From the NCBI GenBank assembly GCA_046292385.1, contig JBKBRF010000002.1:107643-171642 (forward strand): a stretch of DNA of 64,000 nucleotides, read 5' to 3'. Each line of letters starts with the position of its first letter. Position 1 is the first letter of the stretch. A model generated the notes under the pieces. The model was not told where the DNA came from and searched no databases. It was given only the letters and a program-made list of their open reading frames with translations. This document shows positions 10,324 to 16,074 of this stretch, in pieces. The stretch is from Armatimonadota bacterium (GTDB lineage Bacteria > Armatimonadota > SYMT01). Both the position numbers and the translations under genes were made by a program.

Positions 10324-10470
10324 CCGCGCGCCCACGCGCCGACAATCTCAGCGGAGACCCGCGGGCGGAGCGGCCCGGAACCTCCTTGACCCGATAGCGT
10401 GTCAATGATACTGTTCGCTCCCCCGGTCGAGCCGCCGGGGAGCTTGCGCCCGGTCAGAGTGGGAAGAAGT

Positions 10471-11343
10471 ATGTCCACCTCCGAAGAATTCAGACCGCAG
10501 GGCGGACGGAACGCCGTCGAAGGCGAAGAGCCGCCGAGCGCGGCAGGCTTCCGGGCGATGGGAGACGACCTCGCCGCGGAAGGCCGGCTGCAGGAGGCGA
10601 TCGAGCAGTACAAGCGGGCCGTCCGCGCGGAAGGGGACAACCCGGACCACCACGCGCGGCTGGGCGATGCCTACGTCTTCGCGGAGAACAGCGGCCAGGC
10701 GCTGGCGCACTACCGCCGCGCGCTGCAGTGCAATCCGAACCACGCCGACACCCACTTCTCCCTGGCAGAGGTCTACCGGCGCTTCGGCAAGATCAAGGGC
10801 GCGATCACCCTCTACCGCAAGGCGATCGACCTCGCGCCCCGCAACCCCTACTACCGCTACCGCCTCGCCACCGCCTTCAGCCAGCAGGGGAAGGTCGACT
10901 CCGCCATCCACGAGCTCCAGGAAGCGATCCGCCTGGCCCCGGAGGACGGCTTCTATCATTTCTGGCTCGGCGACCTCTACCTCGACCTCGACCGCACCGC
11001 GGAAGGAGTCCGCGAGCTGGAGCAGGCGGTGAGCCACTGCCCGTTCGACGACTACTACTGCGTCCGCCTCGGGATGGCGTACGGCATGGTGAACCGCAAC
11101 GACGACGCGGTGCCGCTCTTCCAGCGCGCCATCCGTCTCCGCCCGAACAACGCGTCGTACCACTACCTGCTAGCGGATGCCTTCGCGCGCATGGGCTACG
11201 CGCTGCGGGCGGCGATGCACTACGAGATCGCCGGCGACCTCGATCCGTACGACCGCCAGTACGTCACCCGCATGCGAGAGGGCTTCCTGAAAGGAAGCCG
11301 CCCCAGCCGGGAAGACTTCGGCCTCTCGCCGCTGGAAGACTGA
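10471..11343 (+). CDS. Tetratricopeptide repeat protein
   Basis: Several TPR units (e.g. HARLGDAY...ALAHYRRALQCNP and YRLATAF...AIHELQEAIRLAP). ATG at 10471. Confidence 0.9.
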   Translation: MSTSEEFRPQGGRNAVEGEEPPSAAGFRAMGDDLAAEGRLQEAIEQYKRAVRAEGDNPDHHARLGDAYVFAENSGQALAHYRRALQCNPNHADTHFSLAEVYRRFGKIKGAITLYRKAIDLAPRNPYYRYRLATAFSQQGKVDSAIHELQEAIRLAPEDGFYHFWLGDLYLDLDRTAEGVRELEQAVSHCPFDDYYCVRLGMAYGMVNRNDDAVPLFQRAIRLRPNNASYHYLLADAFARMGYALRAAMHYEIAGDLDPYDRQYVTRMREGFLKGSRPSREDFGLSPLED

Positions 11344-11358
11344 CCCCACTCTTCCGAG

Positions 11359-11409
11359 AAAAGACCGCCGGGGAGGAGCTGATCTCTCGCTCCTCCCCGG
11401 CGGTCTTTT
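11359..11409. terminator. Bidirectional intrinsic terminator
   Basis: AAAAGACCGCCGGGGAGGAGC-loop-GCTCCTCCCCGGCGGTCTTTT, lying between convergent genes. Confidence 0.85.
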
Positions 11410-11425
11410 GCTTCCGGCCCGGCGC

Positions 11426-12415
11426 CTACTTCGGTGCGGGCTCCGCGCCTCGCTCCGGTCTGCGCTCCGGCAGCTTGTAGTCCGGCGGCCGCTGGTCCGG
11501 TGGCAGCCAGCGCTGCGGGTTGTAGTCGAGCCCGTAGGCGTCCGCCATCCGATTGTAGAAGGCGAAGAGCGCGGTGATGAAGCTCGCCTCGAAGATCTGC
11601 TCGTCGTTCCAGCCGGACTTCCGCAGCCGCTCTACGTGCGCGTCGGTCACCTTCGCGGGCTCCAGGGTGAGCACCTTCACGTAATCGAGCAGCGCCCGCT
11701 CGCGCTCGGTGAGGTTCGCCGCCTCGGCGTCGCCCTGGCCGATCTTGTCTACGTCTTGTTGGTCTTGTCCCTGCAACTGCAGGTTATACGCGTGCGCGCC
11801 CACTCAAAACTTGCACCGGTTGAGCGCGGAGACGTAGGTCGCGATCATCTCCTTCGTGCGGCGGTCGAGCGCGGTATCGGGCCGGTGCGCCTTGCCGTGC
11901 AGCGTCTGGATCAGCCGCAGCCACTCCGGCCGCAGGCTGAAGGTGTGCATGATCCCGTTCTTCGGCTGCCGTCCCAGGATCTGCTCCACTTCGTCGTAGC
12001 GGGGATCGCCCGGCTCGGCCCAGTCGATCCGCATCACGCCCGCGGCTTGGCGGACCATGCCGGTGATGGCGGCCGCGGAGGAGGACCGGCCGACGAAGCG
12101 GCCGCGGCGGTCGTAGACCAGCGCCGTCGGCGTCTCCACGATGCCGTACTGCTTCGCCAGCGGCTCCGTACCGGACTTGAGGGGGATCTCCCGGAAGCCG
12201 ACTTTCGCCCCCGCCTGCTGCCGGAGCTCCTGGAGGAATCCCCGCTCCAGCGTGCTGGAGGGCTTCAGGAAGACGAAGACGGTCGGCCGCTCCGCCGCCA
12301 GGTGGCGGGTCAGCGGCGCCTCGCGCGCGGCGGAGAGCGGCGCAGCCGGCGAAGGCGGGCTTCCGCCCGGCGCGGCGAGCAGCGCCGCCAGCGGTAACGC
12401 GTGGAAGGGTGACAT
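11426..12415 (-). CDS. Predicted selenoprotein: Cys-less thioredoxin-like domain fused to an AhpD/CMD peroxidase-related domain with CxxU (Sec204, TGA at 11806-11804)
   Basis: ORFs 11804-12415 and 11426-11803 are in one frame and separated only by TGA. Joined, they give EMIATYVSALNRCKF-U-VGAH...LTERERALLDY...GWNDEQIFE...FYNRMADAYG, a complete AhpD-like domain with TGA at the second Cys. A hairpin follows. Confidence 0.85.
11770..11783 (-). promoter_or_regulatory. Candidate bacterial SECIS element
   Basis: On the minus strand CCUGC-AGUU-GCAGG; the loop starts 26 nt after the UGA, with G at loop position 2 followed by U. Confidence 0.65.
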
Positions 12416-12419
12416 CTCC

Positions 12420-13265
12420 TCAGTTCTCCTTGAACCAGGCCCGCGCCGCGGGGGCGAGGGTGCGCGACCATGCCACGCCGCTGGTGCTGCGGGTGCGCCA
12501 GGAGCTGCCGGGGCCCTTGAACCACTTCACGTGCCCGTCCGCCAGCAGGTAATTGGCCCCGCCGCTGTGGCGGTAGCGGGCGCCGCAGTAGTTCGCCGCC
12601 TGCCCGTTCGTCGGACCGGTAATCGGCGGGTAGCCGCTCTCCAGGCGGCTGCAGTCGGTGGTCCAGTCATCCCCGCCGGTGACATTGATCCAGCCCATGC
12701 CCTCTGCCGCCAGCACCACCTCCGCCGGGGCGTTGATGGTCGCCAGGCTGCTCGGCTTGCCGGGGAAATGGCCGAAGCTGGCGAAGCCGCGGTGCCACAT
12801 CGGGATCAGGTTGCCGTTCGCCATGTAGCTCATCGCCGGGGAGAAGTTCTGCGCCGGGAACGGTCCGGGCGCCGGCTCGCCGGGGAGCAGCGGGACCGAC
12901 CGGTTCTCCACGCTGGGACAGATCCAGAACGGAGCGTTGGCGCGCTGCGCGTTGACGCCGTTCTGGATCACGGCGCGGGCCCCGGCCCGGGCGTACGGCT
13001 CCACCAGGTCGTACCACATCTGGACCGGCTGCCCCGGCGGGTTGTAGGCGCCGAGCGGCAGCATCTCGTCGGCATCCTGCGCGTACATGATCACCGCCAT
13101 GCCGATCTGCTTCATGTTGCTGGTGCAGCTCGCCTGGCGCGCTTTCTCCCGGGCCTGCGCGAAGACCGGGAAGAGAATGGCCGCCAGGATAGCGATGATG
13201 GCGATCACTACGAGCAGCTCGATCAGGGTGAAGCCGCGGCGATAGGTGGGGAATGATTGAGACAT
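12420..13265 (-). CDS. DUF1559 prepilin-type N-terminal cleavage/methylation protein with H-X9-DG motif
   Basis: [36 protein letters not shown]-terminal [16 protein letters not shown]. Confidence 0.93.
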
Positions 13266-13486
13266 AGTGCTCCCTACGAAACCTCTGCACGCTCCTCATC
13301 TGCGTGCCGCGGGCGGCAGCCTGGGGGCGAAAGGCTCCTTGCTGATCTAGCATGGAACGGTAGGACACACCGTTAGAAAGGACTAAGCCGCCGCGCCCCG
13401 CGCCGAACACACGGGGCAGGAGCGAGACGCTTCGGGACAGAAGCCTTCGTAGTCACGTCTGCGCCAGACCCTCCCTTCCTGCACTG

Positions 13487-13744
13487 ATGCCACCTTCCAA
13501 GCCGGCCGACGATCCGGCCAACGCCCGTCCCGCCCCCGGAGAGATCGTGCTCCACGAGGGGCTCACCCTGCTCGAGACCGACGACCCGGTGCTCCTGGTG
13601 GAGCTGCAGTCCGACAGCCGGGTCGCCGCCTCGATCGTTGCGCTGCTCTCGCCCTGCGCCGCGGTGGTGAAAGCCGGAGACGCCCCGGCCCTCGCCGAGC
13701 GCCTGCTCAAGACCGGGCACCTGCCGAAAGTGAGCGAGCTGTGA
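13487..13744 (+). CDS. Small hypothetical protein resembling the C-terminal module of the downstream helicase-associated protein
   Basis: 85 aa with GC-rich codon usage; its stop overlaps the next start (GTGA). The LLSP...AL..LL..G..PK pattern is shared with the downstream protein. Confidence 0.7.
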   Translation: MPPSKPADDPANARPAPGEIVLHEGLTLLETDDPVLLVELQSDSRVAASIVALLSPCAAVVKAGDAPALAERLLKTGHLPKVSEL

Positions 13745-16074
13745 GACTCGGCTCCCTGAGCGGCGAGATCTATCCGGGCGAGCCGATGCGCTTCGACGAA
13801 TTCCTCTCGCAGTTTTCCTCCGAAGAGCTCAAGCGGCTGGCGAAGCCTTTCGTCGGAACGGAAGCGTACCGGCTCAAAAAGGACGCAGCCCTGCGGGCGA
13901 TCCTCACCGCGCTGCAGAGCCCGGACGTCCTCCGCCGGCGGGCGGCGTCCCTTTCGGAGGGCGAGCGGTTCGCGCTCACCCTGGTGCGCCGGCGCGGCGG
14001 GAGCCTGCCGGCGGCGGAGCTGGCCGGCGCGATCTGCGGCTCCGGGCACACGGTGGAAGGCTCGCAGTATGACCGCGACTCCTGGACCTCTGCCCTGAAC
14101 GGGTTGACCGACCGGCTGCTGTTGATGAACGTGGGGCCCTACACAGGCGGGTACGGCTATTCGAGCTACTCGCTGGACGGAGGCCTCGGCGGGGTGGTCT
14201 CGTTCTCGGACGAGCGTCTGCTCCCCCTGGTGGAGCACACGCCCCCGAAGACGCTGGCGATCGAGCCGGCGCCGCAGCCGGAGGTGCGGGCGAGTCGCCG
14301 CCCGGCGGAAGTACTGCTGCTGATGACCGCCGTCATGGAGGCGATCGGGCGGATGGGGGGGCTCCCGCTCACCAAGAACGGCAAGCTCAGCCGTCCGGGC
14401 CTGCACCGCCTCACCAAGGCCCTGAAGGGGCGCGAGGAGTCGCCGCACCCGCTCGCGGTATCGCTCTCCTTTGACGAATTCCTCGCTTCGGAGTTCCTGA
14501 CGGAGCTACTCGGCTCGTCCGCGCTGCTGAGCTGCGACGTCGAGGCGATGCGGGTGCTGCCCGGTCCTGGAGCCTGGGAGTGGCTGGAGGCGCCGTTCGA
14601 GATGCAGGCGCTCCAGTGGGCGATGGGGTACCAGGTCCTCACCGGCTGGGCGGAGTTCCTGCCCAGGCACTACTATGACCGCCGCGAGCTGGATGTCTCC
14701 GGCAAGGTCAACGCGCTCCGAGCCGCCCTGCTGACGGGCCTCGCGGCGCTGCCGGACCCCGCCCGCTGGTACCGCTTCTCCGAGCTCGCCGCCGCGCTGG
14801 AAGGAAGGCTCAAGGGAAAGCTGTCGCTCATGGTGATTCCTTCGACCTACTTCTACGGGAGAACGGAAGCGGAGCGGCAGGCGTTCGAGACGAAGCGCCA
14901 GGAAGAGCTGCGGAAGAACTGGGTGCAGTCGGAGCAGGTCTGGCTGGAGCGGGCGCTCCGCGGACCGCTGTTCCACCTGGGGCTGGTCGAGCTCGGCGCT
15001 GCCGCGGAGAGTCCCGACGACCTCCTGTTCCGGCTCACCGATCCCGCCGCGTCCGGGCTGCGCTTCTTCTTCCACAACGTCCAGATCCAGGTCGCACCGC
15101 CGCCGTCCGGTGGCTGCTGGGTGGTGCAGCCGAACCTCGACGTCGTCGTCTACATGGACCGCGTCACGCCGGCGCGGCTGGCGTTCCTGGGACAGGTGGC
15201 GAAGACGGAGTCGGTCCAGCCGAATGCCGCCACCTACCGGCTCACCCGCGATTCGGTCTACTACGCGCTCGAGAGCGGCTTTTCCGCGGAGCAGCTGCTG
15301 GAGGGCCTGCGGGAGGGCTCCCAGGGACCGCTCTCCCCGGTGGTGGAGCGCACGCTGCGGGACTGGTCCGCCAAACGGGAGCGGATCCGGCTGCACACTT
15401 CCGCCCGCCTGCTCGAGTTCCCGGACACCGCGGCCCGGGACGCCGCGGCGGAGCGGCTGGGAAAGGCGGGCGCTCCGGTGGGAGAGCGCTTCCTCCGCCT
15501 GGAGGCGGAGACGCTGCCGAGGGAGCTGGCAGCGCGCGTGACGCAGCGGATCGACTACCGGCTGCCGCCCCCCACCTGCCTGGAAGTGGCGGAAGACGGC
15601 ACCGTCACCGCGCGCGGGTCGCTCGACCTCCCGGCGCGATCGCTGCTCCTGCGCTGGATGGAGCCGCTCCCGGACCGGGCCAACGCCTGGAGGCTGACCG
15701 AGGCGAGCGTCCGCGGCGCGGCGGCGGCAGGACTAAGCCCGGCCTCGCTCGAGACGGTGCTGACGGAGCGGACCGCCTCCGGCGAGATCCCGGGGATCCT
15801 CCGTGTCGCGGTGCGGGCGTGGGCCTCCGGGCGCCCGCTCGAGAAAGCGACTCTCGGGGAGGCGACGCTCTTCCTCATCCAGGAGAAGGCGCTGGCGGAG
15901 GCAGTGGAGGCGAGCGAGCGGCTGCGGGCCCTCCTCGGCGAGCAGCTCTCGCCTCGCGCGTACCTCGTCCCCGATGCCAACCTGGACGCCCTCCGCGCGC
16001 TGCTGGCGGAGCTCGGCATCCAACCGAAGGAGCCCGTTCCCAGGGCGCCGCGATCCCGAAAGAAGGGCGCGTAG
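13741..16074 (+). CDS. Helicase-associated domain protein (Helicase_C_3 / XPB N-terminal-like), no ATPase motifs
   Basis: WVVQPNLDVVV...YRLTRDSVYYALESGFSAEQLL...VERTLRDW, plus a second copy WRLTEASVRGAAAAGLS. Alternative start ATG at 13786. Confidence 0.82.
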   Translation: MRLGSLSGEIYPGEPMRFDEFLSQFSSEELKRLAKPFVGTEAYRLKKDAALRAILTALQSPDVLRRRAASLSEGERFALTLVRRRGGSLPAAELAGAICGSGHTVEGSQYDRDSWTSALNGLTDRLLLMNVGPYTGGYGYSSYSLDGGLGGVVSFSDERLLPLVEHTPPKTLAIEPAPQPEVRASRRPAEVLLLMTAVMEAIGRMGGLPLTKNGKLSRPGLHRLTKALKGREESPHPLAVSLSFDEFLASEFLTELLGSSALLSCDVEAMRVLPGPGAWEWLEAPFEMQALQWAMGYQVLTGWAEFLPRHYYDRRELDVSGKVNALRAALLTGLAALPDPARWYRFSELAAALEGRLKGKLSLMVIPSTYFYGRTEAERQAFETKRQEELRKNWVQSEQVWLERALRGPLFHLGLVELGAAAESPDDLLFRLTDPAASGLRFFFHNVQIQVAPPPSGGCWVVQPNLDVVVYMDRVTPARLAFLGQVAKTESVQPNAATYRLTRDSVYYALESGFSAEQLLEGLREGSQGPLSPVVERTLRDWSAKRERIRLHTSARLLEFPDTAARDAAAERLGKAGAPVGERFLRLEAETLPRELAARVTQRIDYRLPPPTCLEVAEDGTVTARGSLDLPARSLLLRWMEPLPDRANAWRLTEASVRGAAAAGLSPASLETVLTERTASGEIPGILRVAVRAWASGRPLEKATLGEATLFLIQEKALAEAVEASERLRALLGEQLSPRAYLVPDANLDALRALLAELGIQPKEPVPRAPRSRKKGA

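Follow-up and report, generated by a model that had tools for sequence, protein, structure and literature searches.

An in-frame TGA that very probably encodes selenocysteine in a two-domain AhpD-like gene of an Armatimonadota bacterium

Introduction

On the minus strand of contig JBKBRF010000002.1 of an Armatimonadota bacterium (assembly GCA_046292385.1), two open reading frames (ORFs) share one frame and are separated by a single TGA codon. The stretch analysed, called the window, is the 64,000 nucleotides (nt) from position 107,643 to position 171,642 of that contig, and the ORFs lie between 11426 and 12415 of it. Does the TGA end a gene, does it mark a broken or misread one, or is it decoded as selenocysteine (Sec, U), so that both ORFs make a single protein? 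Our data argue for the last of these, and the interrupted gene is very probably a genuine Sec-encoding gene of the AhpD-like family. An original prediction, made from the letters of the window, had proposed one protein of 329 amino acids (aa) with Sec at position 204. The proposal is supported by the conservation of the Sec column, by a hairpin downstream of the TGA, by the Sec machinery of the genome and by the conservation of the downstream half.

AhpD-like proteins with a CxxU centre are among the commonest selenoproteins of prokaryotes. The excerpted text of the Global Ocean Sampling (GOS) selenoproteome (PMC2398784) gives 'AhpD-like 1' (COG2128, CxxU) with 299 Sec and 902 Cys forms, that of a 2026 review (PMC13188914) names an AhpD-like protein of TIGR01926 with CxxU, and BSepDB (PMC13326102, also in excerpt) has a page for the AhpD-like family. 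That Sec-containing AhpD-like proteins are known, as the original prediction had it, is borne out by the CxxU forms which the first two of these sources list.

Results

A single TGA in an otherwise open frame

The gene and its main parts are as follows.

11426 to 12415, minus strand: whole gene of the predicted 329-aa two-domain AhpD-like selenoprotein, from the ATG at 12415 to the TAG stop at 11428-11426
11516 to 11983, minus strand: AhpD-like or 'peroxidase-related' all-helical domain (about aa 145-300), split by the TGA, from PDB profile matches and Foldseek
11792 to 11851, minus strand: active-site stretch, with E189 at 11849-11851, C201 at 11813-11815, U204, and H208 at 11792-11794
11804 to 11806, minus strand: predicted Sec codon TGA (U204), the second position of C201-K-F-U204, from conservation of the column as TGA or Cys
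11770 to 11783, minus strand: SECIS-like (Sec insertion sequence-like) hairpin CCUGC-AGUU-GCAGG, from pairing, covariation and the rules for bacterial SECIS elements (bSECIS)

Both the reading of ORFs and the translation with TGA as U show that the frame from 12415 to 11426 is open throughout except at 11806-11804; no other stop and no frameshift occurs across the joined frame. Under translation table 11 it appears as two ORFs in one frame, 12415 to 11804 (203 aa, from ATG) and 11803 to 11426 (125 aa, from GTG). This agrees with the earlier description of co-framed ORFs at 11804-12415 and 11426-11803 with one TGA between them. Reading TGA as U yields a 329-aa protein in which U204 falls at the junction ...YVSALNRCKF-U-VGAHAYNLQ..., which matches the VSALNRC-K-F-[TGA]-VGAH given before. 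It had also been claimed that the downstream GTG lacks a Shine-Dalgarno sequence, and indeed no purine-rich Shine-Dalgarno was found in the 16 nt 5' of this GTG (ccggtgcaagttttga).

Protein family, fold and active site

The joined protein scores 95.9 bits against the NCBIfam profile TIGR01926, 'peroxidase-related enzyme' (cut-off 81.8), and the match of residues 157-300 to profile positions 34-177 of 178 runs across the TGA. It is also matched by Pfam CMD (PF02627). The profile of true AhpD, TIGR00777, was not reached (22.7 bits against a cut-off of 191.95), and the selenoprotein is therefore not an AhpD orthologue. Neither was the cut-off of AhpD_rel_CFYUT (NF041238) reached, with 55.7 bits against 175, and the protein has CKFU where that family has CFYU. 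Every testable feature of the TIGR01926 family was found in the gene, which thus belongs to a known selenoprotein family. It resembles that family in its TIGR01926 score, in the Sec at the second CxxU position and in the Cys homologues at the column. It differs in an added hydrophobic leader and a Cys-less thioredoxin-fold domain and, in part of Armatimonadota, in its coupling to a DUF1559 gene.

A search of the PDB with the family profile returned 3c1l, 6k40, 2prr, 2oyo and 2pfx over residues of about 145-300 with E-values of 1e-21 to 1e-23. An AlphaFold2 model built from a 119-sequence alignment (predicted local distance difference test, pLDDT, 93.4; predicted template modelling score, pTM, 0.87) places a beta-alpha-beta-alpha-beta-beta-alpha domain at 45-125 and an all-helical domain at 138-294. 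In Foldseek the predicted helical domain matches 3c1l, 2prr and 6k40 at a target TM-score (TMt) of 0.75-0.81 with 25-30% identity. These best profile and fold matches, 3c1l (Mlr4105), 2prr, 2oyo, 2pfx and 6k40 (alkyl hydroperoxide reductase of D. radiodurans), cover about aa 145-300. They are single-domain CxxC proteins of about 190 aa, whereas the present protein would carry Sec and has an extra N-terminal domain.

The active site has the spacing E189-x11-C201-x-x-U204-x3-H208 and forms a helix-turn-helix motif in the predicted model. C201 is invariant, E189 is kept in at least 90% of family members, and His stands at 208 in 11 of the 11 rows that reach the column. According to the excerpted text of PMC3141380, the relay residues are Glu118, Cys130, Cys133 and His137 in M. 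tuberculosis AhpD and Glu36, Cys48, Cys51 and His55 in P. aeruginosa PA0269. The spacing of both relays is the same as here, F203 corresponds to Tyr50 of PA0269 (Tyr in many homologues), and in place of their second Cys the present protein would have Sec. The TGA thus stands where the original prediction had placed it, at the second catalytic Cys, and Cys forms fill the same column.

Conservation of the TGA and of the sequence behind it

The phylum was searched in 41 genomes, the window's own included. Matches were found in 18 genomes at 34 places, 28 of which were translated. TGA stands exactly at the CxxU column in 27 of these 28, and the single departure is a tandem paralogue in one genome (G031) with TGT. 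Among the six untranslated places, one has TGA, one is a C-terminal fragment short of the column and four are weak stop-free matches (20-31% identity). In a second set of 80 loci kept from named genomes, TGA is present in 76 (18 of 20 two-domain and 58 of 60 single-domain loci) and the remaining four have TGC at the Sec column. The single-domain loci come mostly from Planctomycetota and Acidobacteriota. The two-domain loci carry the labels Armatimonadota, Abditibacteriales, Chthonomonadaceae, Capsulimonadales and Armatimonas, apart from three of Actinomycetota type and one 'bacterium'. The three loci with Actinomycetota or Actinomycetes submitter labels (L056, L059 and L062) appear to be the same stretches as ones from genomes of the window's own family, and their labels are probably outdated.

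In the public protein collection the best 120 of 139 matches were listed, and 118 were considered after the window's own 203-aa ORF and a 479-aa fused call were dropped. Of these listed matches, 100 break off exactly one residue short of the Sec column; at the column itself, Cys is found in 17 and Gly in one. The Gly belongs to a 317-aa homologue (P0030, CRYG); either it is a true replacement, or the record may have been translated under a code in which TGA means Gly. Thus the expectation that homologues would show Cys or TGA at this column was borne out among phylum, named-genome and database relatives alike.

The downstream half shows no decay, which had been named as a sign against a Sec gene. 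When the protein was compared pairwise with two-domain relatives, residues 205-300 were more strongly conserved than residues 40-203 every time, in 10 of 10 cases. Amino-acid identity is 0.49-0.83 downstream against 0.39-0.73 upstream, and the ratio of nonsynonymous to synonymous substitution (dN/dS) is 0.15-0.62 downstream against 0.23-1.0 upstream, lower downstream in all 10 pairs. The downstream half is under purifying selection.

The window's genome (G000) itself holds two further genes of this kind. A two-domain paralogue with 61% identity (C66:24688-25635, plus strand) has TGA at the CxxU position, the same hairpin and a DUF1559 neighbour of its own, and a single-domain AhpD-like gene (C5:193779-194333, minus strand) has the motif NRCPYU with TGA at the CxxU column and again the same hairpin. 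Separately, in a metagenome-assembled genome (MAG) of Chthonomonadaceae, a CFYU-type AhpD-related gene with an in-frame TGA (L055:2596, plus strand) lies about 350 nt 3' of the two-domain gene.

A covarying SECIS-like hairpin behind the TGA

Every TGA-bearing member has a hairpin of the form CCUGC-(A/G)GU(U/C)-GCAGG, which starts 20 nt past the TGA and whose apical loop starts 25 nt past the UGA. Among 18 sequences 97.2% of the cells are paired as against 33-61% in slid controls, and among 77 sequences 96.4% as against 36-61%; in both sets the covariation score was matched by 0 of 500 shuffles. Pair 25-36 is C-G in 66 sequences, U-A in six and U-G in three, and the codon changes behind it (CTG to TTG, CAG to CAA) are silent, a sign of selection acting on the RNA and not on the protein. 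At pair 29-32, A-U stands in 55 sequences and G-C in 12. The hairpin is missing from four of the five Cys forms; the fifth retains the stem and has lost the GU of the loop. This fifth is an Abditibacteriaceae MAG locus with TGC (L063:2101, plus strand) in which the loop is AAAU instead of AGUU, and it looks like a relic SECIS left after a change from Sec to Cys.

The rules applied are those of the bSECISearch model as quoted in the legend of Fig. 2 in the excerpted PMC13188914. All four of its constraints are found here: a 4-nt loop, a stem of 5-7 base pairs (bp), G followed by U from loop position 2, and 25 nt between UGA and loop with -8.4 kcal/mol (flanks included). The first and last loop bases co-vary (A with U, G with C) like the N1/N2 pair of the model. 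The hairpin lies at the small, weak end of the model's range, and recognition by SelB is predicted. The SECIS-like hairpin is common to this gene and the single-domain AhpD-like members of Planctomycetota and Acidobacteriota. The CFYU-type genes of the phylum (L030-L036, L045 and L046) mostly have a different, closer hairpin, CGCAGA-GUU-UCUGCG; L036 has CCUCC-GGUC-GGAGG instead.

Sec machinery and genetic code

The genome is a draft of 91 contigs and 98.45% complete. Profile searches of it gave selA (577.9 bits), selD (362.3 bits) and selB (367.5 bits), all above their curated cut-offs, and a tRNA-Sec with anticodon UCA (66.6 bits), also above its curated cut-off. The genes selA, selD and tRNA-Sec stand in a row on contig C11 (G000:C11:87438-90122, minus strand) with tRNA-Ala just beyond, and selB is on C16. 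The search for Sec machinery which the original prediction had called for has therefore returned every one of selA, selB, selD and tRNA-Sec(UCA). The selD gene is itself interrupted by one in-frame TGA, so that SelD is probably a selenoprotein as well. Elsewhere in the genome, a weak thioredoxin-family match (G000:C22:80234-80512, minus strand, 23.9 bits) contains one in-frame TGA and may be a further thioredoxin-like selenoprotein gene. Global reassignment of TGA was also considered and was rejected, as TGA closes the neighbouring DUF1559 gene at the point at which its homologues finish.

The N-terminal half

Two features precede the AhpD-like domain.

12338 to 12415, minus strand: hydrophobic N-terminus, aa 1-26, a probable signal peptide, from hydropathy
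12038 to 12292, minus strand: Cys-less domain of predicted thioredoxin fold, about aa 42-126, with S54-x-x-E57 in place of CxxC and T95-P96 at the cis-Pro position

A mean Kyte-Doolittle value of at least 1.6 over a 10-aa window before the domain was obtained for 107 of 111 homologues with a full N-terminus, and many homologue N-termini have the K/R-hydrophobic-AxA look of signal peptides. Foldseek matches the predicted N-domain to thioredoxins at a TMt of 0.55-0.68 (E about 1e-4), and the family-profile search of the PDB gave weak thioredoxin matches (E 0.003-0.9) over residues of about 33-113; Pfam thioredoxin did not match the domain at E of 0.1 or below. In a weak hhalign alignment (E 0.0085), consistent with the fold match, S54 and E57 pair with the two Cys of thioredoxin and T95-P96 with its cis-Pro. 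S54 is kept in at least 90% of the family; E57 is invariant in a 14-row alignment and kept in at least 90% of the wider family. No Cys occurs in aa 1-200. Being like thioredoxin in predicted fold and cis-Pro but with SxxE instead of CxxC and no Cys, the domain cannot be a redox-active thioredoxin, and by comparison of sequences it appears to have lost its CxxC. It follows that the earlier statement that neither half is a complete domain stands for the AhpD-like domain (about aa 145-300), which is split, and does not stand for the upstream half, which holds a complete predicted thioredoxin fold (about aa 42-126).

Of 1.84 billion cluster representatives only 34 carry the N-domain, and the lengths of almost all of these fit Sec-truncated or Cys forms of the same fusion. 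In two long proteins, P0142 (614 aa) and P0147 (1691 aa), nine and seven separate stretches, respectively, align with a short portion of it; this could be either a repeated related module or low-complexity noise.

Neighbouring features and the DUF1559 gene

Around the gene the following were read.

12426 to 12431, minus strand: Shine-Dalgarno sequence AAGGAG, 10 nt 5' of the ATG at 12415 and within the end of the upstream gene, by direct reading
11357 to 11412, minus strand: strong hairpin followed by UUUUCU, an intrinsic terminator just 3' of the TAG (-52.1 kcal/mol)
12420 to 13265, minus strand: prepilin-type N-methyl / DUF1559 gene (PF07596, PF07963), 281 aa, a probable operon partner

The terminator hairpin (11412-11357) has a z of -5.55, with 0 of 200 shuffles as good, and the identical stem is found on the plus strand. 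As it lies directly past the TAG, the transcription unit ends after the downstream half and not at the TGA. It is flanked by A- and U-tracts and stands between the selenoprotein gene and a convergent TPR gene (10399-11343, plus strand), and it is probably a bidirectional terminator common to the two. No sigma-70-like promoter site was found in a scan of 11000-14200.

The TGA stop of the DUF1559 gene lies 4 nt 5' of the selenoprotein ATG. An orthologous DUF1559 gene (50-85% identical among loci) stands directly upstream on the same strand at 7 of 11 two-domain loci of the phylum and at 8 of 20 of the named genomes, two sets that overlap, and at none of the single-domain loci (0 of 7 in the phylum, 0 of 60 in the named genomes). 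In most loci the gap is 2-5 nt. G000 and G005 each have two such cassettes, the pair having been duplicated as a unit. Four Cys are invariant in the partner family; overall, the window's genome has 43 DUF1559 matches. A translationally coupled DUF1559 gene was also seen at L021, L023, L024, L025, L038, L039, L055, L057, L064 and L065, the last being a Cys-form locus. In one public gene call of 479 aa (P0083), a DUF1559/prepilin protein and the selenoprotein's N-terminal half form a single chain, and the two genes are therefore adjacent on its contig.

Discussion

The present study stands on the frame, the family, the conservation of the TGA, the covariation of the hairpin and the Sec machinery, each directly demonstrated, together with folds that are predicted models. 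From these it can be proposed that the UGA at codon 204 would be decoded as Sec by SelB with Sec-tRNA(UCA), and that the CCUGC-AGUU-GCAGG hairpin would recruit SelB and the Sec-tRNA. By analogy with AhpD, the selenolate at 204 may be the attacking nucleophile. It would react with a peroxide or with an oxidised thiol partner to give a selenenylsulfide with C201, which a thiol partner would then re-reduce. Such chemistry would make the protein a Sec-dependent peroxidase or thiol-selenol oxidoreductase, whose place is probably the cell envelope. An activity of one of these two kinds is more likely than not on the analogy, and the location in the envelope is favoured by a small margin from the sequence of the N-terminus.

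Another explanation is that UGA terminates and two products arise: a 203-aa protein, made of the thioredoxin-like domain and an AhpD stub, and a 125-aa protein made from the GTG, or else read-through with Cys or Trp. The product that public gene callers give for this contig is indeed one of 203 aa (P0002), the N-domain forms a full fold by itself in the predicted model and the GTG follows directly after the TGA. Under selenium shortage, a Sec-UGA codon would be expected to act as a stop some of the time. But the AhpD-like domain and its E...C-x-x-U...H site span the TGA, the Cys-form homologues are continuous single proteins and the GTG is without a Shine-Dalgarno sequence. Two products would also leave the conserved, co-varying hairpin and the full Sec machinery without a role, and this explanation is very unlikely. 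A pseudogene, in which a nonsense mutation put a former CxxC AhpD-like gene out of action, is extremely unlikely. TGA is one base away from TGC or TGT; however, the same codon is kept in 27 of 28 and 76 of 80 relatives, other phyla included, the downstream half is under purifying selection and better kept than the upstream half in all 10 pairs, and no further stop or frameshift has accumulated.

That the true codon is TGC or TGT and was misread in sequencing or assembly is hardly conceivable, even for a draft of 91 contigs. The TGA is found in independent assemblies as well, and contigs from other public runs bridge it (X2 record 3 and X8 records 21-23). No change at 11804-11806 is among the differences listed for them, and in this respect the check for an assembly error, also named in the original prediction, came out in favour of TGA. 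It should be noted here that the bridging evidence consists of contigs only, with patchy cover, and that the table of differences was available in part, which weakens it as support for Sec. X8 is an RNA-library run; its contigs cover the site and are not proof of transcription.

Other points also weigh against Sec decoding and a peroxidase function. The hairpin is short (5-7 bp), and the lone 14-mer folds at -6.8 kcal/mol. The 76-nt region around the TGA folds no better than its shuffles (z -0.87); bulk energy is thus of no diagnostic use here, and it is the comparative data that speak for the hairpin. An Rfam scan of the whole window gave no match, and the hairpin is thus covered by no curated RNA family. 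Its bases also encode the conserved L-Q/R-L/S-Q-G, so that some of the conservation could stem from the protein. The genome has 16 copies of the core 14-mer pattern, of which 13 have no TGA beside them, and a TGA 24 nt upstream of the core is found only at three AhpD-like genes; with three TGA among 16 occurrences the pattern alone is not diagnostic. As to the chemistry, AhpD-like proteins assayed in print have weak peroxidase activity in the excerpted text of PMC3141380, the same fold hosts another chemistry in the debrominase Bmp8 (6ohj, a Foldseek match), and the function here is assigned by homology. The window's protein has no K or R before its hydrophobic stretch, and its export is judged from a crude hydropathy count. 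Sec insertion at U204, the identity of the nucleophile, peroxidase chemistry, export and the link to DUF1559 are all things that we infer.

A thioredoxin-like/AhpD-like fusion is not mentioned in the excerpted main text of BSepDB (PMC13326102) or in the domain-fusion section of PMC2398784, supplements aside. In the excerpted selenoprotein literature, again apart from supplements, no description was found of the fused N-domain, the probable export or the DUF1559 pairing, and excerpts of the literature on DUF1559 or Armatimonadetes and selenoproteins yielded no paper that links them; PMC4807772 draws no such link in its excerpted text. It is possible, though rather unlikely, that the DUF1559 gene and the selenoprotein gene form a dedicated redox pair of the envelope. 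In such a pair the Cys-less thioredoxin-like domain would dock the enzyme on a pseudopilin with four invariant Cys, and the CxxU centre would make, break or guard the disulfides of the partner, or would detoxify peroxides at a pilus-like surface structure. If this were true, the function of the large uncharacterised DUF1559 family could for the first time be approached, and there would be an example of a Sec enzyme that serves a pilin-like partner specifically.

That gene callers split genes of this kind had been anticipated, and the public record of the window's contig is indeed a 203-aa stub. Public protein sets contain this gene and most of its relatives in truncated form, and the correct reading restores a complete redox enzyme. 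As the family is already catalogued, the gene does not change what is known of the use of Sec. Beyond the known family it adds modest extras: a Cys-less thioredoxin-like domain, fused to the enzyme in a restricted lineage and accompanied by a probable export signal, and a conserved pairing with a DUF1559 gene.

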